Shown: piece by piece, positions 1,439 to 32,285 of the stretch
How positions within the stretch are numbered: the first letter of the stretch is position 1
Layout of the letters: every line of letters starts with the position of its first letter
Virus record (IMG/VR): IMGVR_UViG_3300047300_001096
Location: 1 to 54,260 of that record
DNA: 54,260 nucleotides
From: a virus
Lineage: Duplodnaviria; Caudoviricetes
Reading direction: 5' to 3' (one strand)
Made by a program: the position numbers and the translations under genes
The notes under the pieces: model-generated
Database searches by the model: none
Told to the model about the DNA's origin: nothing
The model's input: the letters and a program-made list of their open reading frames with translations, nothing else

Positions 1439-2293
1439 CTATTTGGTTATATATTCTGCAATTGAGCGAACTTCGATTATATCTAGTTCGCCAGGGTCTT
1501 TGCCGTCAGGCAATTTAATAATTTCTACAATAAAGTTTTCTGCTTCAATAAGCGGTTTAAGAGTTTGGGCTGCTTTTTCTCCCGCTTCATCACCATCAAA
1601 TAATAGGTAAATGTGCGTAATGCCTTGAGCCTTAAACGGAAGTAGCTTTGACTTAGTGTCATTCTGTAATGTGTTTGTGCCGAACGCGCAGATAACATTT
1701 TCTAAACCTTTATCATATAAGTTTAGCATATCGAATATGCCTTCTACAATTACCATTGACTGGTATCCTTGTGGAAGGTGACTTGGAAATACTGGAATCT
1801 TAACACCACTAGGATAATTAATATACCTTGGATTGCCGTTTGATAGTGTATGACGACCAACAAATACTACTATTTTACCAGTAATATCTTTGATTGGAAA
1901 TATAATTCGATCTGCTAGTTTTTCTACTACATTGGTGTAAAAAGCACCAAAGTGTTTGAGTGTTTGAGGACTAACTCCACGGAACTGCTTTAGGTAAGGA
2001 GTATGCCCGTTAGGTAACTCTAATCCTAAGTGACTTGTTTTTAGCTCATTTAACTTTTCCTTGAGTGCCGCAATCTTCATAGGTACAGGATTTGTAAAAA
2101 CCCCGTAATATTTAAATAAATTTGTCTTAAAGCCACAACTAAAGCAATGAGCAACTCCAGTAACACGATCAACACGAAAACTAGGATTTGAATCTTCGTG
2201 ATCTGGGTTCAGGCATTTGATCAGGTAGTCGCGGCCGGACACACTAAATGCTAAACTGTTTTTGTTGATTAGTTCTAGTACTGGGTCGCTCAT
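1439..2293 (-). CDS. DNA primase (zinc finger + TOPRIM)
   Basis: CLNPDH...CFSC zinc finger; IVEGIFD and FDGDEAG TOPRIM motifs. Confidence 0.95.
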   Translation of the reverse strand: MSDPVLELINKNSLAFSVSGRDYLIKCLNPDHEDSNPSFRVDRVTGVAHCFSCGFKTNLFKYYGVFTNPVPMKIAALKEKLNELKTSHLGLELPNGHTPYLKQFRGVSPQTLKHFGAFYTNVVEKLADRIIFPIKDITGKIVVFVGRHTLSNGNPRYINYPSGVKIPVFPSHLPQGYQSMVIVEGIFDMLNLYDKGLENVICAFGTNTLQNDTKSKLLPFKAQGITHIYLLFDGDEAGEKAAQTLKPLIEAENFIVEIIKLPDGKDPGELDIIEVRSIAEYITK

Positions 2294-2294
2294 T

Positions 2295-3680
2295 TTAATT
2301 CCATGGTAAGTCGGATGATGTGTCGTCTTGTTTTAAGTCAGGTTGTGTTTTCTTCCCAGCTTTCTTAACAGCTTCCTTAGCGGCTGGTTTATCCACTGAC
2401 TGTGGGCTAATGCGTAGGGTGTCCCAGTCAATCGGGCATGTAAATGCCATTTCCTTGCCGCCACGAATTTTCGTCGTTTCGAAGGAGATTGCATTTGTCT
2501 CTTTATCGTGCGCCTCCATCGTGAGAGCAATATCCGCTGCGTCCAAGATTCCCTTTGCAAAACGTGCCTCTCCATCCTTGTCGATCTGGTAAGGAGATAC
2601 CATGACGATTTCATACTTGCGTGCAAGATTTTTGAGTTTCTTGGATATTTCAATTTGTGGTTTCCAGTCGTATTGGTCTGTGCCTTCTAGTACAATTTGA
2701 TTAACATAGTCTACGACTGCAACTTTTAGCTTGTCGCCAAACTTTGCTTTGGCTTTGCCAATGTGTAAGTCGATACTACTTAGGGTCAAATCGCGGTCAT
2801 CTACAATAATCATTTGATTATCTACTTTTAGTTGATGGTTTCGTACTAGATTTTCTTCGAATTTAAATCTGTCACGATGACGCATAAACTCCATTACTGT
2901 AGCATCAGCATCTTGGAACATACCTGCTCTAGCTTTTACTACTCTGAGAACTTCGTCATCTGTTAATTTGTGTTGTTTTAAGTTTTGTAAGTTAACATTA
3001 GCTAAGATAGCTAGATTACGCTCCATTGTTTCTTGAGCGGTCATCTCAATACTGAAATAAATACTACTATTACCAGACTCGTATTGATTAACGAAAATAT
3101 TGCTACTAGTAATAGATTTACCAGATCCCCTTTTACCCCCAATGAGAATGAGTTCTTGGCGAGCAACACCGCCAAGCACGGCATCAAAAGTATTATTAAG
3201 GCCAAGATAAACACGTTCTTTTTCCAAATCGTCTGGGTGGCGAAACATCATCATATCAGCCATAGTAAAGACTTTTTCTGATGTGTGCGTTTTTTCTTCA
3301 ATTGTTAATGCTAAGTTTGCTAAGTTATCTTTTATTTCGTTTGAATCGTATAGTGGTAGTTTGTCTACAAATTTGTCTAATAATTTTACCGTTTCATTTT
3401 GTGTATACTGATCAATTAGCGCATCAAGCGCCACTTCAGCTGAAACGTCAGGAACCTCGGTTAACCGAAGGGTTGCTAACGTCTTAGACGCTGGACCCTC
3501 CCTTAAGGTTAGCTCAAGATCGTCAAATGACGGAACGGCACTGTATTTCTCGTAATACTTATTTATAGCGCCGTACAAGGAAGAGTAGGCAGCGTCTAAA
3601 AATACTAATTTGAGTTTAGCCCAGATATCTAGGTTTCGCTCGCTTAGCAATTTATTTAAGACTACTGCGGATGTATCCAA
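2295..3680 (-). CDS. Replicative DnaB-like helicase
   Basis: Walker A GGKRGSGKS, FSIEM and VVDY motifs; T5 synteny. Confidence 0.93.
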   Translation of the reverse strand: MDTSAVVLNKLLSERNLDIWAKLKLVFLDAAYSSLYGAINKYYEKYSAVPSFDDLELTLREGPASKTLATLRLTEVPDVSAEVALDALIDQYTQNETVKLLDKFVDKLPLYDSNEIKDNLANLALTIEEKTHTSEKVFTMADMMMFRHPDDLEKERVYLGLNNTFDAVLGGVARQELILIGGKRGSGKSITSSNIFVNQYESGNSSIYFSIEMTAQETMERNLAILANVNLQNLKQHKLTDDEVLRVVKARAGMFQDADATVMEFMRHRDRFKFEENLVRNHQLKVDNQMIIVDDRDLTLSSIDLHIGKAKAKFGDKLKVAVVDYVNQIVLEGTDQYDWKPQIEISKKLKNLARKYEIVMVSPYQIDKDGEARFAKGILDAADIALTMEAHDKETNAISFETTKIRGGKEMAFTCPIDWDTLRISPQSVDKPAAKEAVKKAGKKTQPDLKQDDTSSDLPWN

Positions 3681-3682
3681 GA

Positions 3683-3982
3683 TTACCCTACTTTCGATTC
3701 GTTATCAATAATAACTTGGTCAATAATTTCTGTGACTTTATAGAGCACAGCTTCTCTTAATTTTTTAATATCTTGTTGATAAGCAGTATCTTTGTCATAT
3801 AAGAGACTCAACTGCTCATGAGTAATTAGTTGTTGCAAACCAAAATAGATATGATCGTATGCCATTGTACTTTCAGGCATAATTTCTATTTGTGCAGTTT
3901 TGCCGTAATTATGAACGGCTTGTTTAACAACCTCTTCTACTGTAAAAGAGTCGTTGTCATGATATGTAATTGTAACTTTCAT
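3683..3982 (-). CDS. Hypothetical protein
   Basis: Tightly packed 99-aa ORF in the replication operon. Confidence 0.75.
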   Translation of the reverse strand: MKVTITYHDNDSFTVEEVVKQAVHNYGKTAQIEIMPESTMAYDHIYFGLQQLITHEQLSLLYDKDTAYQQDIKKLREAVLYKVTEIIDQVIIDNESKVG

Positions 3983-3999
3983 ATTCGACTCGCTAAAGT

Positions 4000-4034
4000 A
4001 AAAAAGGTCGGGAGCTTTTTAAGAACTCCCGACC
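4000..4034 (-). terminator. Intrinsic terminator after D5
   Basis: GGTCGGGAG/CTCCCGACC stem followed by a T-run on the minus strand. Confidence 0.8.
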
Positions 4035-4054
4035 AATCGTGTTATAAAACTAGA

Positions 4055-4801
4055 TTAAGCAGCAGCTTTGGCTTCTGCTTTAGCCTTCTTTGCAGCACCA
4101 TCGTAATCGGCAACTTTAATGCCACGACGTGTCAACAATGTGCGAAGACCGCGTTCTGTTTTGTCCACTGCTTTAGCAATGTCAGCAACAGTCATAGTGC
4201 TGATTTTGTCGCCAAGGGCTGTAACTGGATCAACAGTTTCTTTAGCATGAGAAACGCGCTGTGCGGGAATCTTAGCAATTTGACCTTTGCGTGTCAGGCT
4301 CAAAGCCTTACCACGAACAGAGGCAACTGTTTTATTCAGGGCAGTAGCGATATCTTCGATGAAGCTACCTGCGTCAGCCATAGCGATAAACTTAGCTTCT
4401 TCAGCTTCAGTATATGTACGAGCCACTTCGACTTTTTCAGCAGGCTTCACTGAACCAGTCAATTCCAATGCCAAGAGTTTACCTTGGATTTGTTTTGCAG
4501 AGAATTTGCCACCAGCAAAAGACTCAGCGATTTCTTTGTAAGTCATGCGACCAGCGTTGTTAACAACGAAGTCAGCCAAGTTTGCGCTTTCATCAGGTGT
4601 AAAGGCACTTGTTTTTTCTTTAGCCATAGATGCAACTTCGCAATCGAGTTGACGCAACTTAGAGGCAACAGAGCGAGTTGTGAAGCCCAAAGCCTCAGCA
4701 GCACGTTCTACAGTGTCAACGCTAACAGGTGATTCGCCATTAACGATGCTCATCAATTGGTCGATAGCTTCGTCAGACCATTTTTTAGCTTTTTCAGTCA
4801 T
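4055..4801 (-). CDS. T5 D5-like DNA-binding protein (tandem HTH-like repeats)
   Basis: Repeated W/F/Y-T-x-E...IA...RSVxxKL units; lies between ligase and helicase as in T5. Confidence 0.85.
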   Translation of the reverse strand: MTEKAKKWSDEAIDQLMSIVNGESPVSVDTVERAAEALGFTTRSVASKLRQLDCEVASMAKEKTSAFTPDESANLADFVVNNAGRMTYKEIAESFAGGKFSAKQIQGKLLALELTGSVKPAEKVEVARTYTEAEEAKFIAMADAGSFIEDIATALNKTVASVRGKALSLTRKGQIAKIPAQRVSHAKETVDPVTALGDKISTMTVADIAKAVDKTERGLRTLLTRRGIKVADYDGAAKKAKAEAKAAA

Positions 4802-5555
4802 TTTTGTTTTCTTTCAAGAAAGTATTTAAGTTTGTGATAATTGTAATACCGAGAGACTCGGCTTTTTTGCGTTTTGAACTACCTTTATCTTCTTCGTCAA
4901 CTAAATAATCAGTAGCTTTAGTTACTGATTCTACTGGTGTGTAGCCTGCCTCTTCTAATGATTTGTAGGCTTCTGCTTTAGTTTTGTAAGAAGATAATTT
5001 TCCTGTGATACAAATAGTTTTTTGATTGGTATTCGTATTGGAATTCTTTTGAGATTTAAACGAGAAAGGCAAAAACTCTCTCATCTCTTGGAAATCAGTC
5101 TCAAGCCAGTTGACTAAGTTTTGGGTTACTTTGTCGCCTAATCCAGCTTGCTTGCAAGTATCGTAACTGATCTCGTCTACAGATGTGACTACATCACACA
5201 ATTTTTTACTTGCAGTAGCACCTACTAAGGGAATAGAAAAACTAGCAATAACTGTGGCTAAATCAGCAGACTTTGATCGTTCGATTTCATCCAGTAGTTT
5301 TAGTGCTACTTTCTCACTACCTAGTGATTCTACAACTTGCTCTTGATCGAGATAAAACAATTCAGTAATATCACTCAAGCCAAGTTTTTCAACTGTGCGA
5401 GAACCCATACCTTTAATGCCAAGAGTCTTACAGAAGTGTTCGACCTTTTTATTTAACTGAGCGCCACAAGCCGTGTTTCTACAAAAGAGCTGATCGTTGA
5501 CCAGTTCAAGTGGGTAATTACAGCAAGGACATTCAGTTGGTATTTCGATTCTCAT
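4794..5555 (-). CDS. NAD-dependent DNA ligase subunit B (Zn finger, HhH, BRCT)
   Basis: CPCC...C...C finger, IKGMG HhH, ICITGKL BRCT; split ligase as in T5. Confidence 0.92.
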   Translation of the reverse strand: MRIEIPTECPCCNYPLELVNDQLFCRNTACGAQLNKKVEHFCKTLGIKGMGSRTVEKLGLSDITELFYLDQEQVVESLGSEKVALKLLDEIERSKSADLATVIASFSIPLVGATASKKLCDVVTSVDEISYDTCKQAGLGDKVTQNLVNWLETDFQEMREFLPFSFKSQKNSNTNTNQKTICITGKLSSYKTKAEAYKSLEEAGYTPVESVTKATDYLVDEEDKGSSKRKKAESLGITIITNLNTFLKENKND

Positions 5556-5641
5556 AGTTTATTTATCAATTTAAGTATCTATTATACTTGATTAAGTCGC
5601 CTCGGACAAGTGAAAATTTCTCTTGCCCTTGGCTAAAAATT

Positions 5642-6598
5642 TTATGCATCTACTTTGTGAAGTATGCAAGGGATAATTTCACCTGATCTAATTATGGCTA
5701 CGGTGTCTCCGATTTGGAGGTCAAGCATTTCAATAAAACCAGGGTTATTAAGAGTAGCCCGACTGACGAGGGCATCGCCAATATAAACAGGCTCAAGAAT
5801 AGCAACTGGAGTGACTTTGCCACTTTTGCCAACTTGCCATTCAACATCAAGGAGTTTAGTTTCAACATGAGCTGCTCGCTCTTTCTTTGCATATGCACCA
5901 CGTGGATGCTTGGCTGTGTATCCCATTTCTTGGAATACTTGGTTATCATTTACACGAAATACTACACCATCACAAGGATAGATTTTATCCAAGTCAGGTT
6001 CGCTGATTACATTGAATCCGAACTGCTTAAGCATAACTAAATCTTGACGATAAGTTGTAGTAATGCATGGCTGAGAACCATAGGCAAAGAAACTCAGCGC
6101 ACGAGTACTAAACTCTGTTGAATCTTTTAAGTTAAGTGAGCCTGCTGCATAATTACGAGCATTTTCAATATACTTTGGAGCAACAATCTCGCCAGTAATT
6201 TGCACAACGCCTGTTAATGGAATTGTATGTGGAACTAATCCAGTATGGCTCAAGATTTTGTCAGTAATGATTTGACCCTCAACACCATCACCACGAGTTA
6301 ATGCCCGTACAAGTGTGCCATCAACATACAGTAAGCTAATAGCAGCACCATCGAGCTTGGCAGTAGTAACAATATCACTAATGCCTTCCAAAGGACGTTT
6401 TTGATCTTCATCTTCGTAATACTTTTGTAGTGAATACATTTGATAAACATGACGCTCGACATTGCCGTGCTGCTTAGCACCAACGGCATTATATCCGATC
6501 GACTCTGCAAGTCGATCGAACTGGTCGTCACTAATGATCGGAGCACCACTGTAATAGGCTCGCGAAGCTAAATTTAAATATTGTTCAAGTTTATTCAT
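5642..6598 (-). CDS. NAD-dependent DNA ligase subunit A (adenylation + OB domains)
   Basis: MYSL, KLDG, TRGDG, DGVV and RATLNN motifs. Confidence 0.95.
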   Translation of the reverse strand: MNKLEQYLNLASRAYYSGAPIISDDQFDRLAESIGYNAVGAKQHGNVERHVYQMYSLQKYYEDEDQKRPLEGISDIVTTAKLDGAAISLLYVDGTLVRALTRGDGVEGQIITDKILSHTGLVPHTIPLTGVVQITGEIVAPKYIENARNYAAGSLNLKDSTEFSTRALSFFAYGSQPCITTTYRQDLVMLKQFGFNVISEPDLDKIYPCDGVVFRVNDNQVFQEMGYTAKHPRGAYAKKERAAHVETKLLDVEWQVGKSGKVTPVAILEPVYIGDALVSRATLNNPGFIEMLDLQIGDTVAIIRSGEIIPCILHKVDA

Positions 6599-6623
6599 AA
6601 GTATTATTATACCAGTTTAAGCA

Positions 6624-6923
6624 TTACAAATCAAGATTATTTTCTTCTCGCAGTATCTTAGCGGCATAGTGACGAATAATATCTTCGCCTTCGGCCCGTG
6701 AACAAATATCCAATAATCCGTCTAGCAGACTATAGATATTTTCTGTGGATGCAGGAATCGAGATGCCTTCTCGTGATGCTTGCCAGTCACCTTCATAGGT
6801 AAGAAAGTATTTGCGAAGTTGGATATATTCAATTTCTCGAAATTCGTTTACAACCAATCGAACCTGGAAACCTTTGTCCATGTTTTCTTCGATTAGTTTG
6901 TTGTAGTGAATATTGTCATCCAT
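6624..6923 (-). CDS. PC4/p15-like ssDNA-binding protein
   Basis: EFRExEYIQLRKYF...W...REGISIP pattern; T5 synteny upstream of the ligase. Confidence 0.75.
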   Translation of the reverse strand: MDDNIHYNKLIEENMDKGFQVRLVVNEFREIEYIQLRKYFLTYEGDWQASREGISIPASTENIYSLLDGLLDICSRAEGEDIIRHYAAKILREENNLDL

Positions 6924-7549
6924 TAGATTTTAACTCCTAGTTCACGCAAGTGTTCTAAGCTAGCAAGTTCGCTAACTTCTTGATACGCTGATTGCAACCA
7001 ACGATCTGATAACAACCAAATGCGATATACAAATCCGTACTTGTCAGATTTTTGTTCTGCATCAATGCGTGCAATTGAATCATAGCGTGAACTATAAACA
7101 ACTTCACCAATTTTGAATCGGTCACGAATTGCGCCGTCTGGAATCAGTTCTGGTGTAAAGTAACTAGATCCAGGCACACGAATTGGCACACTATTACCTT
7201 CTAGTACATCTTTGATAAATTTACTGCTACGATAAGTCATCTTTGAGATAGCGTCTACAGTTTCACCATTTAAGTACTCTGAAATAATATAAATTTTTTC
7301 TTCCTGCGTTGCAGGTTTACCGCGAAGTTGTGACTTGCGCTGTGCGGTGCGAACTTGTTTTTGTTTATATTCTTCAATAATAGTACCCAGTCGAGTAGTA
7401 TTATAACTCATGCCTAACATAGCGCAAGCGTCTTTTTTGGTAATAGGTTTCTTACCTTCTTCTGTAGGTTCGAGCAAACGAATGACACGGCTAATATTAG
7501 CATCAGTCATCATTTCTTCTTCACTAGCGGAACGCTTGCGTGTTGCCAT
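6923..7549 (-). CDS. T5 D2-like protein
   Basis: TKKDACAMLG, YRS, YRIWLLS and ELASLEHL resemble T5 D2; start moved to ATG 7549 with an AGGA RBS. Confidence 0.8.
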   Translation of the reverse strand: MATRKRSASEEEMMTDANISRVIRLLEPTEEGKKPITKKDACAMLGMSYNTTRLGTIIEEYKQKQVRTAQRKSQLRGKPATQEEKIYIISEYLNGETVDAISKMTYRSSKFIKDVLEGNSVPIRVPGSSYFTPELIPDGAIRDRFKIGEVVYSSRYDSIARIDAEQKSDKYGFVYRIWLLSDRWLQSAYQEVSELASLEHLRELGVKI

Positions 7550-7550
7550 G

Positions 7551-7748
7551 TTATTTTCCTTTTTTGATTCGGTTGATAGCTTTGGTTTTTTCTGAAGGCA
7601 CTTTCTTTTCGAGTTCTGCTTTAGCACAAGCTATTCGCACATCTCGGAGCAGGGCTTCATCATCCCACTCTAGCTTTGTTGACCCGTCTAGGTAAGTAGT
7701 AACTGTTAAGTGACTACCTTTATTGACTTTGAGTACTTTATTGACCAT
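7551..7748 (-). CDS. Hypothetical protein
   Basis: Short ORF filling the gap between D3-like and D2-like. Confidence 0.65.
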   Translation of the reverse strand: MVNKVLKVNKGSHLTVTTYLDGSTKLEWDDEALLRDVRIACAKAELEKKVPSEKTKAINRIKKGK

Positions 7749-8691: not shown

Positions 8692-8720
8692 ATTATACCG
8701 CTTTTGCAGTTTAGGGTCAA
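8692..8720 (-). promoter_or_regulatory. Sigma70-like promoter whose -35 overlaps the TGACCCTAAACTG motif
   Basis: TTGACC-17-TATAAT on the minus strand. Confidence 0.75.
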
Positions 8721-11392: not shown

Positions 11393-11468
<76 letters not shown>

Positions 11469-11478
11469 GACTCGTGAG

Positions 11479-11552
11479 TGGAGCGGGATATCAGGCTCGA
11501 ACTGATCTCTCTAGTTTGGAAGACTAGGGCACAACCCCTATACCAATCCCGC
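11479..11552 (-). tRNA. tRNA-Gly(TCC)
   Basis: GCGGGAT acceptor, CTAGT-CTTCCAA-ACTAG, TCCA end. Confidence 0.92.
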
Positions 11553-11643
11553 TTAAATTTCTATATCTACTAAACTTACTTTGACAAAACCATGTTCGTC
11601 AAAACTCCAGATTAGAACTTGCAGCATATTGCCGCTTTTATAA

Positions 11644-11904
11644 TCAAAAAGGGACATCTTCATCTTTCCAGGGAGCTATCTCATTTTGATAATATTCTTC
11701 AGCTTCTTTAAACCCTGCTCTTGCAAGTAAATCAGTCATAACAGGTGTTGTAAAATTTACAAATCCTTGTTTATTTAACCATATAAGGTATTCAAAATCA
11801 TCTGCAATAATGTCGCATATACGACAGCCAGCAAACTTACCAATAGTAAGTTTATCTAACATATCTAATTTTTGAGATTTTAAACTACCAAATGATTTAG
11901 CCAT
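11644..11904 (-). CDS. Exonuclease X C-terminal-like small domain protein
   Basis: LTIGKFAG..I.DI...D..YL.WL motif. Confidence 0.6.
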   Translation of the reverse strand: MAKSFGSLKSQKLDMLDKLTIGKFAGCRICDIIADDFEYLIWLNKQGFVNFTTPVMTDLLARAGFKEAEEYYQNEIAPWKDEDVPF

Positions 11905-12481
11905 TTTGTTTTTCCGACTCAAGTTCTTGCATTGCAGCCGCTTTAGCAAGTACTAAATCAATACGTGCAAGTACTTGTTGGCTAGTCATCCAAATGTCTT
12001 TGTTATCTAACATGGACTTGATTTCTTCAGGTGTTAAAAAATTGTGGTATACTTCATGCAAGAAGTTTTCTGACCAAGCACGTTCAAACTGAAGTTGGTC
12101 AAACATTTCACCGCCTTTGCCAAATACGCCTGCACTATAGTTGTGGAACATAAACAAGCTATGTGGTGTTACTTCAAACTCATCTCCGTGTAGGAATATC
12201 ATTGTTGCAGCACTCATACAAGCACCCTCTACACTAGTAATTACATGGGCATCTGTTTCTGATAGCACGCGCAAAAACTGCAAAGCCGTATATAAATCGC
12301 CTCCGCAACTATTAATGTAAATTTTAATTGTGTCTGTACTACGAGCATTACGAATGGTGTCAAACCATTCTGTATATTCACTAGCTTCTTCTATTTCGCC
12401 TGACAGATAAAATTCGTGTACGCTTCCCGTATTCTTTGTAAAATACGTTTTACTCAATGTAATTTCTGTTTTGTCTGTCAT
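11897..12481 (-). CDS. ClpP-like protease (S14)
   Basis: YINSCGG, GACMSAATMI (Ser), FMFHN (His), DIWMT. Confidence 0.9.
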   Translation of the reverse strand: MTDKTEITLSKTYFTKNTGSVHEFYLSGEIEEASEYTEWFDTIRNARSTDTIKIYINSCGGDLYTALQFLRVLSETDAHVITSVEGACMSAATMIFLHGDEFEVTPHSLFMFHNYSAGVFGKGGEMFDQLQFERAWSENFLHEVYHNFLTPEEIKSMLDNKDIWMTSQQVLARIDLVLAKAAAMQELESEKQNG

Positions 12482-12491
12482 GTGTGTTCTT

Positions 12492-12632
12492 TTATTTAAG
12501 TTGTTGTAAATGTTGTCGACAAGCGTTTACCCAAGCAACAACAGTCATGTTGTCTGTAACATGACTGTAATTTTGGATAACCCACTCACAAATATCGCGG
12601 CTTTTGGCATGATAGCCAGGTATTACGTCCAT
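12492..12632 (-). CDS. Hypothetical small protein
   Basis: ATG 12632 with an AAGGA RBS just after tRNA-Cys. Confidence 0.55.
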   Translation of the reverse strand: MDVIPGYHAKSRDICEWVIQNYSHVTDNMTVVAWVNACRQHLQQLK

Positions 12633-12642
12633 ATAATTCCTT

Positions 12643-12720
12643 TGGAAGTGTGGGTGAGATTTGAACTCACGATTTTCAGGATTTGCAATCCCGTGCATTG
12701 GACCGCTCTGCCACCACACC
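12643..12720 (-). tRNA. tRNA-Cys(GCA)
   Basis: GGGA-TTGCAAA-TCCT anticodon arm, T-arm, TCCA end. Confidence 0.88.
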
Positions 12721-12825
12721 ATATTTTAGCACACTAGCATATGAGTTTGCAACCTCATACTAACCCGCGGAAGGTGTACGCGATTACTCCGCATATATGT
12801 ATTAAGTGGCAGTGTACTAAAATAT
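12721..12825 (-). ncRNA. Candidate stable RNA 1 (stem-closed inter-tRNA spacer)
   Basis: 15-bp terminal inverted repeat with a G-U pair only on the minus strand; two internal hairpins. Confidence 0.55.
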
Positions 12826-12899
12826 GGCGGTCTTATGGGGTAACGATCCCCATCTACAGCAGTGACAGTGCTGTGTGCGTCCATGAACACTTTAAGACC
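12825..12899 (-). tRNA. tRNA-Asp(GTC)
   Basis: CAGCA-CTGTCAC-TGCTG anticodon arm, GCCA end; atypical T-loop ATCGTTA. Confidence 0.85.
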
Positions 12900-12997
12900 A
12901 TTTTTAGTAGCGCCTGGTCGCCATATCCAGGTAGCTTCAGTGTCAGGGAGGAGAATAACACTTACACGCTATAGCCAATGAATTCGCTACTAAAAAT
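12900..12997 (-). ncRNA. Candidate stable RNA 2 (stem-closed inter-tRNA spacer)
   Basis: Perfect 13-bp terminal inverted repeat ATTTTTAGTAGCG/CGCTACTAAAAAT; two internal hairpins. Confidence 0.55.
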
Positions 12998-13072
12998 GGC
13001 ATCCCGTACCAGATTCGAACTGGTGTAGTCACCGTGAAAGGGTGGTGTCCTAGGCCTCTAGACGAACGGGAT
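12997..13072 (-). tRNA. tRNA-Glu(TTC)
   Basis: Cloverleaf, CT-TTC-AC loop, GTTCGAATC, GCCA end. Confidence 0.92.
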
Positions 13073-13079
13073 ATTGTTT

Positions 13080-13163
13080 TGGTACGAGTAATCGGAGTCG
13101 AACCGATACGCATTTCGCGGGAGATTTTAAGTCTCCTGGGTCTACCAATTCCCCCATACTCGC
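13080..13163 (-). tRNA. tRNA-Leu(TAA)
   Basis: GGAGA-CTTAAAA-TCTCC, long variable arm, ACCA end. Confidence 0.92.
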
Positions 13164-27746: not shown

Positions 27747-28033
27747 CACACATTTACAAAAAAGCTTGACAAAAGATTACAAAAATTCTCTCCGACCCTA
27801 AACTGCAGCAATCCCACAATTCCCATAACCAAAGCATTGCAAACTACAAAGCAAAATTAATCTTCATCAAAGCATCCAGCAACGCTTTCAACAAACTTGC
27901 CAATTCAAGCACCAAGTGTTATAATATTATTATAGTTTTTAGAACAAATGCTCAACACACCTCCACACTAAAAAATACACTTGTTATTATGCTATCAAGT
28001 GTGCTATAATTTAGTATAACTTAAAGAGTTAAA

Positions 28034-28157
28034 GACTAGGTTGATTTAGAGAATTGATCTAAACTATCGAAACCTCTTGATGACGAGCCCTGCCGAGGTA
28101 AAGCTAGAGTGGTTTGGTACAGTTTAGGGTCAATTCAAATAAATCGCGAACCTAGTC
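28034..28157 (+). ncRNA. Long rod-like hairpin in the leader of the 28206 gene
   Basis: Nested pairings GACTAGGTT/AACCTAGTC, GATTTA/TAAATC and GAATTGA..TAAACT/AGTTTA..TCAATTC, downstream of a promoter. Confidence 0.55.
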
Positions 28158-28205
28158 CTGCTTATCGACTACAATTGTGTTTGAACTAAAACTACTATAT
28201 TTAAA

Positions 28206-29000
28206 ATGCTATTTAAAAAACAAGAAATACACTCAATTGATTTTACTGGAACTGAACACTTAAATCTCGAAGGCTGGGAAAGTTGGTGTGAATCGGTAAG
28301 TCTGTCCCACCTTTACACCTGGTTGCTGCCTCAATTAGTAGCTTGGTATGGAACCTGGACTCTAGTAAAAGATGGTGATCGAATTGATGCTTTAGCCACA
28401 GTTAAACACAACTGCCCTGACCCTAAGTCTAGGGCATTTTATATGTTGTCAAGGGTTAAACGAAGTTTATTATTAGCAACACAAACGAAAGCTCCAGAAT
28501 ATGCTACACTAACCCCACTGATCTTAATGGGACAAAAGCGAATGGCTGGAGTTGACTACGAGTCTTGGAGAACAGCCACAAATTTGCAGTGGATTTTAGA
28601 ACCCCGACTCCTAGAAGCAATATTATTAGATGGTAAAGATTTGTCGATGATTGACAGTTTAGGGTCAGAAAGACTCTTAGCTATACAAACACAAGGATTA
28701 ACTACTAAGTCAGGTAAAACAGCAGGCTCAAAGAAGCCTGCAAAGTCTACTTGGAGTTTAACAGGAATTCAGGACACAGAGATTGGGCACTTGCCTAAAT
28801 TAACTCAAACAATCTTAACACAATGCTGGCTAGCACATCCTGAATTACGAACACCTTATATGATCTTAGACTTACAAAACTGGGATAATATGCCCAAACC
28901 TCTAGTATCTAATGATATTTTTAAAGTGGAACAACCACTTCAACCAACCCCGAAACAGAATTTGAAAGAGCTGGCAGATGTAATGCCCTGGGACCTATGA
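28206..29000 (+). CDS. Hypothetical protein (264 aa)
   Basis: Long ORF coupled to the A2-like gene; no motif recognised. Confidence 0.8.
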   Translation: MLFKKQEIHSIDFTGTEHLNLEGWESWCESVSLSHLYTWLLPQLVAWYGTWTLVKDGDRIDALATVKHNCPDPKSRAFYMLSRVKRSLLLATQTKAPEYATLTPLILMGQKRMAGVDYESWRTATNLQWILEPRLLEAILLDGKDLSMIDSLGSERLLAIQTQGLTTKSGKTAGSKKPAKSTWSLTGIQDTEIGHLPKLTQTILTQCWLAHPELRTPYMILDLQNWDNMPKPLVSNDIFKVEQPLQPTPKQNLKELADVMPWDL

Positions 29001-29350
29001 AATACACTAAAGAAATCACAGACAAATTGATACAAGACTACAAGGCTCAAATACCTGTAGCACAAATTGCACAAGAGTTAGACGTACCAGAACGTAGTGT
29101 GATCGCAAAACTCAGCTCTCTGGGCGTCTACCAGAAAAAATCATATGTCAACAAGCGTGGTGAGATTCCAGTTAAAAAATCGGAGCACATCGAACGCATT
29201 GCTGAGCTTCTGGACGTGGATGAAGAATTGTTGGAATCGCTGGAGAAGGTCAACAAAACGGTTCTCAAGCTAATTGAAGCTAAACTTGCCCAATCTGACC
29301 CTAAACTGCCACAATTAGGCACAAAAAATCAGTTATTTGAAGTTGTTTGA
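28997..29350 (+). CDS. T5 A2-like DNA-binding protein (paralog 1)
   Basis: YT.E....Y....IA..L....RSVIAKLS..GVY.KK...KK....IA....ESLEK.NK..L. Confidence 0.75.
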   Translation: MKYTKEITDKLIQDYKAQIPVAQIAQELDVPERSVIAKLSSLGVYQKKSYVNKRGEIPVKKSEHIERIAELLDVDEELLESLEKVNKTVLKLIEAKLAQSDPKLPQLGTKNQLFEVV

Positions 29351-29362
29351 ACTTAAACAAAC

Positions 29363-29398
29363 AAAAGCCCACTTATTTGAGTATAAGTGGGCTTTTTT
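29363..29398. terminator. Bidirectional intrinsic terminator
   Basis: AAAAGCCCACTTAT/ATAAGTGGGCTTTTTT. Confidence 0.85.
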
Positions 29399-29530
29399 GC
29401 GTGGGTATCGGTGACCGTGTAAATTGTGTACGATTGCTCTGGTTTAGGGTCAATTAAAGAAAACTTTAATATGGGCTGGGTCATATTAAAGCGTTTTTAA
29501 CAGTTTAGGGTCAGAGTGTAGAATATCCAC

Positions 29531-29560
29531 TTGACAAGATTTGCCACTCGGTGGTATAAT
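29531..29560 (+). promoter_or_regulatory. Consensus promoter with no downstream ORF
   Basis: TTGACA-18-TATAAT followed by GGCGC. Confidence 0.65.
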
Positions 29561-29575
29561 GGCGCAGAAATGACC

Positions 29576-29613
29576 AAAACAAAAGCCCCTGCACACGAAT
29601 GTGAGGGGCTTTT
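29576..29613. terminator. Bidirectional terminator ending the ncRNA candidate
   Basis: AAAAGCCCCT/AGGGGCTTTT stem with T-runs on both strands. Confidence 0.85.
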
Positions 29614-30157
29614 GAAAGCATTTGCAAGTGCACTTGCGTTGTCTTTTTTGTTGCATCAAGGTGTGTTTACGGATAATCAATCCAACCTTGACCCTAAACT
29701 GCCGCGTTAGCTGCCTACTCTGTTAGTCAGTGGTGATGAAGTCACTGTGAGCGTTTAGGTTGCGGGGTTTGCACGTTTCGGTCTTAACTGGGAACTCCCT
29801 ATCAAGATATCCGTGACTAACACATAGATTAACGCATTTGCTAGCGACTGAGCTTTTAGACCTTCGACAGTTTAGGGTCAGATTCGCACCATTATTTAAG
29901 CACCCGTTGCTAGGTCTTGTGCGCCTTTACAGAATGGTTTGCGCAACGCCATTCAATCGCTAGTAAGATTCCATACTTACATTACAGAACTAGGTTCTGG
30001 TCTTGGTTAGAAGATAGCTGTATTTGTTAAGCCAGTTCTTTCTGCTTTATTAGACATTTTTACGAGTGTACTAGATGGCTCGGCATGGGATATAGGGTCG
30101 GCTCCCTAGAACTACTCATTACCTAACACCAACAAGTGGTACACGCTAGGGGTTTCG

Positions 30158-30260
30158 TCCTGACCCTAAACTGCTGCAGGTTATGAGTATTGAAGTCTCA
30201 CGGACCGTGCTGCTGAGGTAGAGGGTTTCGCTGAACTTACATCAGCTCATCAGAGGGTTA
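30158..30260 (-). ncRNA. Hammerhead ribozyme-like core
   Basis: CUGAUGA-GCUGA(UGUAAGU)UCAGC-GAAA at 30253-30226; candidate AGGG-UC-AGG substrate at 30167-30159. Confidence 0.55.
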
Positions 30261-30441
30261 AGTTGGCAGCCGCTAGAGCGTTCCTCGGCTATTAAGTTGC
30301 TATCCCGCAATCAAGTGGCAGGCCTCATAACACCATGTTTGTGCTCCACGCTTGTGCGGTTGAAGCTAAGGGCTGTGGCTCAGAATTCCCCACAATTAAG
30401 ACTTATTTGACACTGATGTCACCCTATCAATTTATATAATA

Positions 30442-30470
30442 ATTATACAGTATTTAGCATACTATATCAA
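30442..30470 (-). promoter_or_regulatory. Promoter of the ncRNA candidate
   Basis: TTGATA-17-TATAAT with an A/T-rich upstream element. Confidence 0.8.
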
Positions 30471-30671
30471 GTAAAAAATTAGACACTCGCTGCAATCAGA
30501 CTACTCACAAAACAGACTAATAAATAATTTGGAGGTTGAGGTGAGATTCATTTGCAAACGGACACCAATTGCTTGGTATTCATTAAGCCCTTCTCGACTG
30601 TCTAAGATATTATTATACAGAATTTAAGGAAGAGGATCAAGTATAAATTTTTTGACCCTCAACCACAGCAA

Positions 30672-30980
30672 TCAACGCAAGTTTTGGAGAATTGCTTCCA
30701 ACACTTCGTGATTGGCTTTTTCGAGGCTATCAAATGCCTCTGGGCTAGCATTGCACAAGTTAGCAATGCGATCAACCAATTCTGCTTTCTTTACACGGGC
30801 TGTGCCCACAGTTTTAGATTTAGCAGTGTAAACACCTTCACGTGAGAGTTTTGCTACCACGCTTCGAGTGGTTTTGCCAAACATTGTTGCCAATGATTCG
30901 ACAGTTGCGCCAGCTTTGTAGTTGGCAACCAACTGAGCTGTTTGCTCAGCTGTGTAATTTACGGTTTTGTCAGTCATCAT
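30672..30980 (-). CDS. T5 A2-like protein (paralog 2)
   Basis: TVNYTAEQT...RSVVAKLSREGVY...SLEKAN. Confidence 0.8.
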   Translation of the reverse strand: MMTDKTVNYTAEQTAQLVANYKAGATVESLATMFGKTTRSVVAKLSREGVYTAKSKTVGTARVKKAELVDRIANLCNASPEAFDSLEKANHEVLEAILQNLR

Positions 30981-31037
30981 ATGTCCTTTCAAATGGTTTC
31001 TGCGCTGTTAAAGATATAATTATACAGTGTTTGAGTA

Positions 31038-31160
31038 TCAGGCACAAGTGAGAATTTCTTCGGGTATGTGCATATCTTCCAAAATTTGCGATACTTCTTG
31101 GTCAACAAAATCCTCAAACCACTGTTGTTGAGTTAACTGGAAAAATTCTTGATCTGTCAT
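31038..31160 (-). CDS. Small acidic protein (40 aa)
   Basis: Hand-translated MTDQEFFQLTQQQWFEDFVDQEVSQILEDMHIPEEILTCA; upstream promoter and RBS. Confidence 0.55.
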   Translation of the reverse strand: MTDQEFFQLTQQQWFEDFVDQEVSQILEDMHIPEEILTCA

Positions 31161-31506: not shown

Positions 31507-31755
31507 TTATCTTTTTGAAGTCAATTTATAATAAATAATAATCGACAAAAAGATTATATTTGCAGTGTAATTAAATAATAATGGCAAATCCATTTTAGGC
31601 AAAATATAAATAAAAGTTAATATTTCGCCTAAAAACCACATAGAAATAAATCCCCAAGTTAATCCCTCAGAGGATTTTGTTCTAATAGATTCAATAGCTT
31701 GTGGCAAACCACAAAATGCCATTAAAATACTGCCTAACCAACCTAAACTTTCCAT
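31507..31755 (-). CDS. PQ-loop/SemiSWEET-like membrane protein, copy 1
   Basis: LGWLGS...LPQ...TKS.EGL; three TM helices. Confidence 0.8.
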   Translation of the reverse strand: MESLGWLGSILMAFCGLPQAIESIRTKSSEGLTWGFISMWFLGEILTFIYILPKMDLPLLFNYTANIIFLSIIIYYKLTSKR

Positions 31756-31958: not shown

Positions 31959-32285
31959 TCAAATAGGCTTGCTATTTGCTAATGCGTTAAAAATCGCTTT
32001 TAATGCGTTTTTATTAGCCTTAGTTAATGATTCAATATCATTTTCGGGTAATCGCAAAATCGCACCGATTGCATCGGCATGAGTATCTTTTTTAACAACT
32101 GATTCACCAGTTTTAGTTTTATATTCTTTTTTAATATAAACTTTTTCTCGTGAAAGTTTTGCGACAATACTCCGAACAGTTTTACCAAGATTATCTGCAA
32201 TAGTTTCAACAGAAACTCCTGCTTGATAATCGTTAATCATTTTCTGAGTTTGCTCAGGGGTGTAATTTACAGTTTTTGCATTCAT
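31959..32285 (-). CDS. T5 A2-like protein (paralog 3)
   Basis: TVNYTPEQT...RSIVAKLSREKVY...ESLTKANK. Confidence 0.8.
   Translation of the reverse strand: MNAKTVNYTPEQTQKMINDYQAGVSVETIADNLGKTVRSIVAKLSREKVYIKKEYKTKTGESVVKKDTHADAIGAILRLPENDIESLTKANKNALKAIFNALANSKPI

Follow-up and report, generated by a model that had tools for sequence, protein, structure and literature searches.

What is encoded in the 1.3-kb intergenic gap between two converging sets of genes in the viral contig IMGVR_UViG_3300047300_001096? The window analysed here is that entire contig, 54,260 bp with an estimated completeness of 51%, and its large terminase is 49–51% identical to those of T5-like Vibrio phages (113–117 kb, Demerecviridae). 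At the junction, the plus-strand genes stop at 29350, where a terminator is found, and the minus-strand genes stop at 30672. An earlier note on this DNA had placed in the gap an undescribed structured RNA, read from the minus strand with a promoter and a terminator of its own, and this proposal is upheld here by covariation, by an asymmetry of G-U pairs and by the depth of contigs from RNA libraries. The locus is a conserved non-coding gene on the minus strand, its helices covary, and it contains a hammerhead core that is complete and invariant. Its product is probably a large structured non-coding RNA (ncRNA; 29575–30435) of a T5-like, Demerecviridae-related freshwater phage, matured by a type I hammerhead ribozyme. 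To our knowledge, large and highly structured RNAs of bacteria and phages are rare, and almost all of them have proved to do something unusual.

A conserved non-coding gene on the minus strand

The signals from which the gene had been proposed were all recovered. No open reading frame (ORF) of at least 60 amino acids (aa) lies within 29.7–30.4 kb, the locus is GC-richer than its surroundings (0.43–0.50 vs 0.35–0.42 in the flanks), and a promoter scan returned the minus-strand promoter TTGATA-17-TATAAT at 30470–30442, hereafter P2. The terminator at 29576–29613 is present as a hairpin, followed by the U-run UUUUGUUUU (29575–29613, minus strand). Both promoter and terminator are retained in all 31 aligned homologues described below: the -10 element of P2 is invariant and its -35 element is kept as TTGAnn, while the terminator stem differs in sequence among homologues with its pairing preserved (CG:20 UG:11) and its U-run is invariant. 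A primary transcript of ~860 nt (29575–30435, minus strand) would extend from the P2 start to the terminator U-run.

Homologues were gathered by three routes. The neighbouring 264-aa protein (67–77% identity) located seven syntenic viral loci, a conserved 30-nt DNA pattern led to 14 viral stretches, and a 25-nt pattern to 46 metagenome stretches. In total 67 loci align and 39 span the whole region; after removal of nine copies with at least 97% identity, 31 sequences including the window were retained. Conservation along the alignment is uneven, ranging from 0.04 to 0.98 per 30 nt, with 30070–30160 and 30550–30610 near-invariant. No ORF is conserved among the 31 homologues, whose longest stop-free stretches (44–98 codons) differ in strand, frame and place. 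The complete, terminally repeated genomes G001 and G003 (99,690 and 101,641 bp) each carry a single full copy; in a third genome of this kind (G002, 98,028 bp) the match is confined to the hammerhead part.

The case for structure lies in how these sequences vary. RNAalifold predicted 103 pairs from the 31 sequences, 30 of them with compensatory change. Explicit structures were then written for two sub-alignments and their pairs counted against 500 shuffles: A3 covers the 5' domain and the ribozyme (29 distinct rows), and A4 the first ~210–250 nt past the predicted cut (30 distinct rows). For A3, 97.5% of the paired cells were paired, against 89.3% in the shuffles; the covariation score was 0.208 against 0.063, and 17 of 45 pairs had changed on both sides against 9.0, values that none of the 500 shuffles reached. 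When the partners were slid by 1–3 columns, the score was at most 0.053. The results for A4 were similar (98.1% vs 91.1% of cells paired and 17 pairs changed on both sides vs 8.3, both reached by 0 of 500 shuffles; score 0.192 vs 0.078; slid controls at most 0.044). The strand is also indicated, as many pairs that are G-U on the minus strand (GU:26–30 at several pairs, including one that is GU in all 30 rows and one in 28 of them, and UG:18/UA:12 at another) would be A-C on the plus strand; the RNA was therefore assigned to the minus strand.

Four helices of the 5' domain (30264–30334, minus strand) emerged from A3: Pa (30334–30332/30265–30267), Pb (30331–30328/30296–30299), Pc (30322–30319/30304–30307) and Pd (30290–30285/30268–30273), with both-sided changes in three of the four pairs of Pb and five of the six of Pd. 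The part 3' of the predicted cut contains, on A4, helices at 30150–30145/30122–30127, 30140–30137/30128–30131, 30108–30104/30093–30096, 30046–30042/30031–30035, 30018–30015/29959–29962, 30011–30009/30001–30003, 30000–29997/29984–29987 and 29980–29976/29963–29967. Further towards the 3' end, the RNAalifold alignment shows a conserved hairpin at 29769–29816 (minus strand), in which CACGGAUA and CYGAAACGUG enclose a variable stem; its internal loop and the column pairs 1058–1063/1129–1133 are invariant, and the column pairs 1069–1071/1120–1122 covary (UA13/CG12, UA18/CG13, CG17/UA6/UG6/AU2).

Comparison also sorted the individual helices that had been proposed from the single sequence. The local hairpins CAGAAC/GUUCUG (in A4) and AGCCG/CGGCU (helix 4 of A3) are kept with compensatory changes, and at the place of GAAUGG/CCAUUC the homologues have, as judged by eye, a hairpin of differing sequence. 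The long-range helices did not survive. The 3' arm of CUAGCGAUUGA/UCAGUCGCUAG occurs in just four of the 31 homologues (the window, L002, L025 and L058), the 5' arm of GUUAUGAG/CUCAUAAC occurs in about four of 31 and its 3' arm falls inside the hairpin of hammerhead stem III, the 3' arm of ACGGAUA/UAUCCGU is seen in the window only, and the arms of CCCUAG/CUAGGG belong to the better-supported CCUAGC/GUUAGG and to the covarying UAGGN/NCCUA. An automatic stem search gave 166 mostly spurious stems under loose rules and four or five hairpins in a strict version.

A covariance model built from A3 (R1) extended the family. It matched a more distant subfamily over the full length (E 1e-12 to 1e-35), whereas in a third subfamily it matched just the ribozyme part, with an intrinsic terminator immediately after the cut; R1 had no match in phage T5 (AY543070) or in Vibrio phage 70E37.1. 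According to BLAST, the distant subfamily has in common with the window the 5' hairpin, the 5' domain, the ribozyme, ~100 nt past the cut and the terminator, and differs in the middle and 3' parts of the RNA. Among cultured phages, neither a nucleotide search with the locus nor a tblastn search with the flanking 117-aa helix-turn-helix (HTH) protein gave a match. The third subfamily consists of ~98-kb phages (L072, L075, L079, L081, L082, L087, L090, L098, L100 and L104; e.g. 310–440 of L075) in which hammerhead stem II is short; in these phages, cleavage would remove the terminator from an upstream RNA and not release a downstream one.

The hammerhead junction and the depth of RNA-library contigs

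Following the 5' domain, a hammerhead ribozyme of type I topology is predicted at 30158–30257 (minus strand) from its invariant core, covariation and a descriptor search. The strand of a hammerhead that forms the catalytic junction has the consensus C3-U4-G5-A6-N7-G8-A9, and the geometry of the fold sets cleavage after nucleotide 17, which is not G. The layout on the minus strand is ...CCU-CUGAUGA-G[CUGA-loop-UCAG]C-GAA-ACCC...(hairpin)...GGGU-C|AGGA, in which the bar marks the predicted cut. The core CUGAUGA occupies 30253–30247 (C3 = 30253) and the GAA of G12-A13-A14 occupies 30229–30227. Stem I pairs 30257–30254 with 30161–30158 and stem II pairs 30246–30242 with 30234–30230; stem III pairs 30226–30223 with 30166–30163 and is extended by a 56-nt hairpin insert (30222–30167). 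The predicted self-cleavage site, GUC|A, lies at 30161–30162, with C17 at 30162 and the 3' product beginning at 30161.

The 31 sequences had been gathered without reference to a ribozyme, and every core base is invariant in all of them. Over the 29 distinct rows of A3, the pair A15.1-U16.1 (A30226 with U30163) is always AU and the first pair of stem II, G10.1-C11.1, is always GC; C17 of GUC is invariant in the 31 homologues and is C in each of 66 distinct sequences. Stem II covaries around this fixed pair, as four of its five pairs have changed on both sides in A3 and three to five pair types occur at positions 3 and 4 among the 66 sequences. The extension of stem III also covaries in the latter set (AT37/TA23/CG5/GC1), and among the first four pairs of stem III the wider relatives show CG:33 UG:11 AU:1 and CG:41 UG:3 GC:1. 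The descriptor matched once in the 54 kb of the window, both strands searched, and never in 200 dinucleotide shuffles of it.

Public RNA libraries bear on the product of the gene. Twenty-four runs are listed as containing part of the stretch, six of which are RNA libraries, and contigs of four of these (X19, X20, X21 and X23) were aligned at 85% identity or more; depth here is one value per assembled contig, summed over relatives. In X19, depth was 7,158–146,556 over 29741–30034, 3,628–7,239 over 30084–30181 and 2–176 over the 5' part at 30182–30426, with 0 over the end of the plus-strand genes (29300–29593) and 31–73 over the end of the minus-strand genes (30672–30750). X20, from the same study as X19, and X23, from a different study, had the same shape; X21 adds little, with six contigs only, five of them fitting partly. 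Across X19, X20 and X23, which represent two studies, the depth of contigs on the 3' side of the predicted cut was ~20–1000 times that of the 5' part and of the flanking genes. Between the bins 30133–30181, which contains the predicted cut, and 30182–30230, depth fell from 3628 to 176 (X19), from 1359 to 13 (X20) and from 140 to 3.7 (X23), i.e., 20-fold to 100-fold, and an 85-nt contig of X23 terminates at 30164. Carried-over DNA would cover the gene no more deeply than its flanks, and depth does not follow conservation, the best-conserved block not being the deepest. Depth also drops across 29740–29690, so the abundant species seems to be without the last ~100 nt and the terminator. This pattern fits self-cleavage that frees a stable RNA of ~470–590 nt.

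We propose the following course of events. Transcription would start from the sigma-70-type promoter P2, possibly also from a second promoter (P1) 170 nt upstream, and end at the intrinsic terminator to give the ~860-nt RNA. About 185 nt from its 5' end, this RNA would fold into the type I hammerhead, stem III bearing the ~56-nt hairpin, and we infer that the ribozyme cuts after C17, at the bond following 30162. The ~275-nt 5' piece with the catalytic core would be short-lived and decay, whereas the 3' piece, starting with a 5'-hydroxyl at A30161, would fold into its many conserved helices and accumulate very highly; the 5'-OH end and the compact fold presumably stabilise it. The putative mature RNA covers 29690–30161 (minus strand), with its 3' end anywhere in 29690–29740 or as far as 29575. 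Its exact 3' end may be set by trimming to the GACCCUAAAC/GUUUAGGGUC helix near 29690, which is predicted to join 29879–29870 with 29699–29690 over 10 bp and is made of two copies of a 12-mer treated below; a predicted convergent antisense RNA of ~85 nt over the terminator region might assist such trimming. Our best guess is that, during infection, the mature RNA serves as a stable RNA that binds protein or self-assembles, like other large phage-associated RNAs. What makes it noteworthy is that it is conserved, once per genome, over many uncultured ~100-kb T5-like freshwater phages, that it appears very abundant in lake RNA, and that its 5' end is apparently generated by its own ribozyme.

A number of observations weigh against this account. 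Taken by itself, the window sequence shows no better folding than its shuffles (z -0.68 and +1.01); as its folding energy is not exceptional, the evidence for structure rests on sequence comparison. The wider alignment A5 (48 distinct rows) also exceeds its shuffles (95.1% of cells paired vs 77.7%; score 0.291 vs 0.085; 35 of 45 pairs changed on both sides vs 16.5), but A5 was fitted to the model structure and is biased towards it. Within the close family, the first four pairs of stem III are 100% paired and do not vary. Stem I is very short: three of its pairs are invariant, and the fourth, over 29 distinct rows, is U-A in 21 and mismatched in eight. The stem shows no covariation, and no tertiary contact to stem II, which hammerheads usually have, was identified. 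Searching viral contigs with a core-based pattern yielded 51 stretches, of which 37 were new and many lie on ~100-kb contigs, but in those 37 loci the core and AGGA were fixed by the search itself. Rfam detected no family, hammerhead or other, in 171 nt around the ribozyme at E up to 10, RF00163 had no match in the genome of the window, and 12 relatives gave only tRNAs at gathering score. Contig depths carry neither strand nor exact ends, the step is resolved to 49-nt bins, and an X19 contig of depth 184 crosses the cut site, representing uncut RNA or DNA.

Several of these points would be expected if the junction were a structural three-way junction that no longer cleaves, the RNA acting at its full length of ~860 nt and the step in depth arising from 5' decay or from assembly effects. 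The short stem I without covariation, the failure of every Rfam hammerhead model to score the site, and contigs that cannot fix RNA ends, one of them crossing the site, all speak for it. We nevertheless consider such a junction unlikely, as (i) all positions known to be needed for catalysis, including C17 in GUC and G10.1-C11.1, are invariant in the 31 homologues, (ii) the module recurs in more distant phages, and (iii) in X19, X20 and X23, representing two studies, the step in depth falls in the bin of the predicted cut. The Rfam miss may itself be due to stem III, whose insert of ~56 nt is set against a model of 45 positions. If so, curated ribozyme models overlook natural hammerheads with long stem inserts, and phage ribozymes are probably undercounted.

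Three further ideas about the ribozyme were considered and set aside. For a further hammerhead at 29690, where GGGUC occurs again, the alignment upstream was inspected, and the descriptor gave one CUGANGA-based junction only; the idea was rejected. Trans-cleavage of other copies of the 12-mer was rejected because the bases past GUC (AGAT, AATT, AGAA and others) could not pair with the stem I strand. A circular, retrozyme-like RNA is unsupported, with one ribozyme per locus and no back-joint among the contig joints, contigs being a weak test of it.

The dispersed 12-mer and a possible role of the locus as DNA

Does the locus also act as DNA? The 12-mer GACCCTAAACTG occurs in nine exact copies in the window, eight of which fall within 2.4 kb (27.8–30.2 kb), in both orientations. 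Its extended form is yTGACCCTAAACTGC.GCAAT, and with at most one mismatch yTGACCCTAAACTG forms a cluster of ten copies, again in both orientations, at 27794–30665 (0.14 expected): 27794, 28120, 28655, 29297, 29440 (variant), 29501, 29690, 29868, 30162 and 30654 (variant). The copies are irregularly spaced (178–1500 bp), unlike typical tandem iterons, and are found inside genes, upstream of promoters and once (8707–8718) over the -35 of a TTGACC-17-TATAAT promoter. A 10-mer core clusters around the ribozyme in all subfamilies; its 547 distinct contexts give the consensus TTGc.gC(A/G)GTTTAGGGTCA(G), and it is present 7–10 times per complete genome, against 0–1 for a reversed control.

The reverse complement of the word contains the GGGUC cleavage strand of the ribozyme, and one copy overlaps the cleavage site. 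Two other copies, GACCCUAAACUG in the RNA at 29868–29879 and CAGUUUAGGGUC at 29690–29701 (both minus strand), are the predicted partners of the 10-bp long-range helix that offers a possible 3' boundary of the stable RNA; in RNAalifold, columns 827–836 pair with 1209–1218 and are invariant save for one position (CG:25 UG:5).

Three paralogous small HTH proteins are encoded nearby (28997–29350 on the plus strand, 30672–30992 and 31959–32285 on the minus strand), two of them flanking the RNA gene. The trio matches the PHROG families 'transcriptional regulator, D5-like' and 'DNA binding protein' (E 1e-5 to 1e-8), and its members are candidates for binding the 12-mer.

The earlier note had offered a T5-type DNA element as an alternative to the RNA. 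In its strongest form, the locus would be a DNA element only, a replication origin or a protein-binding array of the 12-mer, with transcripts that are by-products or activate the origin. The clustering of eight of the nine exact copies, the enrichment of the core and its clustering at the locus in divergent relatives, and the D5-like HTH proteins are what such an element would lead one to expect, and at the equivalent junction of Vibrio phage 70E37.1, 1.6 kb are free of genes and contain TTATCCACA/TGTGGATAA boxes and tandem repeats. None of this explains the compensatory changes and the G-U asymmetry, the invariant hammerhead core with its covarying stem II, or an RNA-library depth 100–1000 times that of the flanking genes. 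The DnaA box has the consensus TTATNCACA, of which the window contains none against 3.9 expected by chance, and no AT-rich unwinding region is found at the locus, which is GC-richer than its flanks. Nor did any contig joint support the inverted 12-mer pairs as sites of invertible DNA. We regard a DNA element alone as quite improbable. The two readings can coexist, and what stands of the alternative is a possible second layer, hinted at by the 12-mer cluster and the origin-like Vibrio junction: the word may be read in DNA, in RNA or in both, with a DNA-level role on top of the RNA gene.

It is attractive to speculate further that phages of this kind carry a new class of self-maturing large RNAs (with a 5'-OH, ~470 nt and among the most abundant phage RNAs of lakes), and that one factor, perhaps a D5-like HTH protein, reads the 12-mer in both DNA and RNA, so coupling cleavage or folding to regulation or replication. 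We advance this combination tentatively and hold it to be doubtful; if true, the link between the word at the cleavage site and the dispersed 12-mer would be a new way to tie an RNA catalyst to the regulatory code of a virus.

Finally, it is hardly credible that the ribozyme processes mRNA of small unannotated genes in the region, even though phage intergenic hammerheads have been proposed to cut polycistronic transcripts (PMC3088659), the HTH gene 30672–30992 lies upstream on the same strand and no terminator was scored between it and P1: 29.7–30.4 kb is devoid of ORFs of at least 60 aa and of any stop-free stretch conserved in the 31 homologues, the unit terminates before any gene, and its conserved blocks are covarying helices.

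Predicted neighbouring transcripts and comparison with known systems

The upstream promoter P1 (TTGATC-17-TATAAT, 30612–30640, minus strand) was found by the scan and is retained in all eight sequences of alignment A1. A -10 block of the ATAATTATACAG type is present in three copies (30439, 30609 and 31016), one of which is contained in P1. The third block of the P1/P2 type (ATAATTATACAGT, 31016–31045, minus strand) lies just upstream of the HTH gene 30672–30992; this gene and the large RNA may have a promoter type in common and could be co-transcribed. The 130 nt separating P1 and P2 are almost invariant (30476–30605, minus strand; column conservation 0.74–0.98) and contain an ACCAA/UUGGT hairpin that covaries (GACACCAA..TTGGT to GACGGCAAC..GTTGTC). 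One RNA library is 10–20 times deeper here than over the subsequent 200 nt; in X19, contig depth was 839–1956 in the interval vs 71–82 over the next 100 nt downstream. Either a distinct small RNA or a processed leader could be encoded here.

From the other side, a convergent consensus promoter with an extended -10 (TG; TTGACA-18-TATAAT, 29531–29560, plus strand) matches at 12 of 12 positions and is retained in all eight A1 sequences. It would drive a plus-strand small RNA of ~85 nt (29567–29650), antisense to the large RNA over its 3' tail, as suggested by a terminator scan that found a hairpin at 29623–29638 followed by a T-run. Two hairpins follow the promoter, the second being this terminator, which covaries (GCAAGTGCACTTGC / GCTGTTGCAACAGC / CTACTGCAGTAG). 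The contig data gave no clear expression of this predicted RNA (depth 0–52). Elsewhere in the window, six tRNA genes are clustered at 11393–13163 on the minus strand (Met, Gly, Cys, Asp, Glu and Leu; ARAGORN found six and Rfam five), and the PQ-loop repeat, a small membrane-protein fold that is unusual in a phage, is matched by an 82-aa protein (31507–31755, minus strand; Pfam E 2e-11).

How new is the RNA? At gathering score, Rfam found no known large RNA (of the kind of GOLLD, ROOL, OLE and HEARO) in the window, only five tRNAs. The earlier note had recognised neither GOLLD nor ROOL here, and both are presumably among the families searched. At E up to 10, the best non-terminator match in 29300–30720 was DUF805b with 20.5 bits (cut-off 35.6), and HEARO reached 13.1 vs 83. 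In the full-text literature, supplementary drawings of the 224-motif paper not covered, we found no description of this RNA or of a hammerhead within a large phage ncRNA. The novelty claimed for the RNA holds for its architecture and for the parts outside the ribozyme, which belong to no Rfam family; it does not hold for the hammerhead part, which had been missed and is of a known class. We class the RNA as a new large phage RNA family, the maturation module of which belongs to a known class of ribozymes and takes an unusual form.

The closest genomic counterpart among cultured phages is the junction of Vibrio phage 70E37.1 (MW824425.1), which is likewise convergent, more than 1 kb long and gene-free, lies some 7–10 kb upstream of the large terminase gene and is rich in short repeats. 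That region differs in having DnaA-type boxes and AT-rich tandem repeats and no R1 match, whereas the window encodes a structured RNA; Rfam gave no match in the gap of 70E37.1. The Vibrio phage (L068) has two gene-free gaps, 1964–3600 and 6190–7586, with perfect DnaA-box words (TTATCCACA, TGTGGATAA), tandem 13-nt repeats of the ATGTGCGAAAC type and AT-rich 40-nt repeats. These gaps resemble replication origins; the record carries no such annotation for them.

Hammerheads in intergenic regions of phages and prophages are known (Perreault et al. 2011, PMC3088659). The ribozyme of the window resembles them in its catalytic core, its three-stem junction and its location between phage genes, and differs from them in lying inside a ~860-nt ncRNA unit with its own promoter and terminator rather than between protein genes. 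Its stem III bears a conserved ~56-nt hairpin, its stem I is of 3–4 bp, it escapes detection by Rfam, and its apparent product is a large structured RNA, not an mRNA. The same paper reports that a transcript 5' end of haloviruses HF1/HF2 maps within three nucleotides of the hammerhead cleavage site (PMC3088659), and a ribozyme-made 5' end is what we infer for the window RNA. It also cites discontinuous or large-loop hammerheads such as that of mouse (PMC3088659), which have in common with the window a canonical core and one stem closed by a long insert that could permit control of cleavage; the window ribozyme is part of a bacterial virus RNA, and its insert is a conserved and covarying hairpin of ~56 nt, not hundreds of nt of untranslated region.

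Among large phage-associated RNAs, GOLLD and ROOL (Weinberg 2017, PMC5737381; cryo-EM paper, PMC12286853) are the obvious comparison. On the sections of these papers that we consulted, they are, like the window RNA, multi-helix ncRNAs of ~500–800 nt with no assigned function, and they occur in genomes with tRNA genes; the window has six, located 16 kb off and not adjacent. The predicted self-cleaving ribozyme built into the window RNA sets it apart, as those sections describe none for GOLLD or ROOL.

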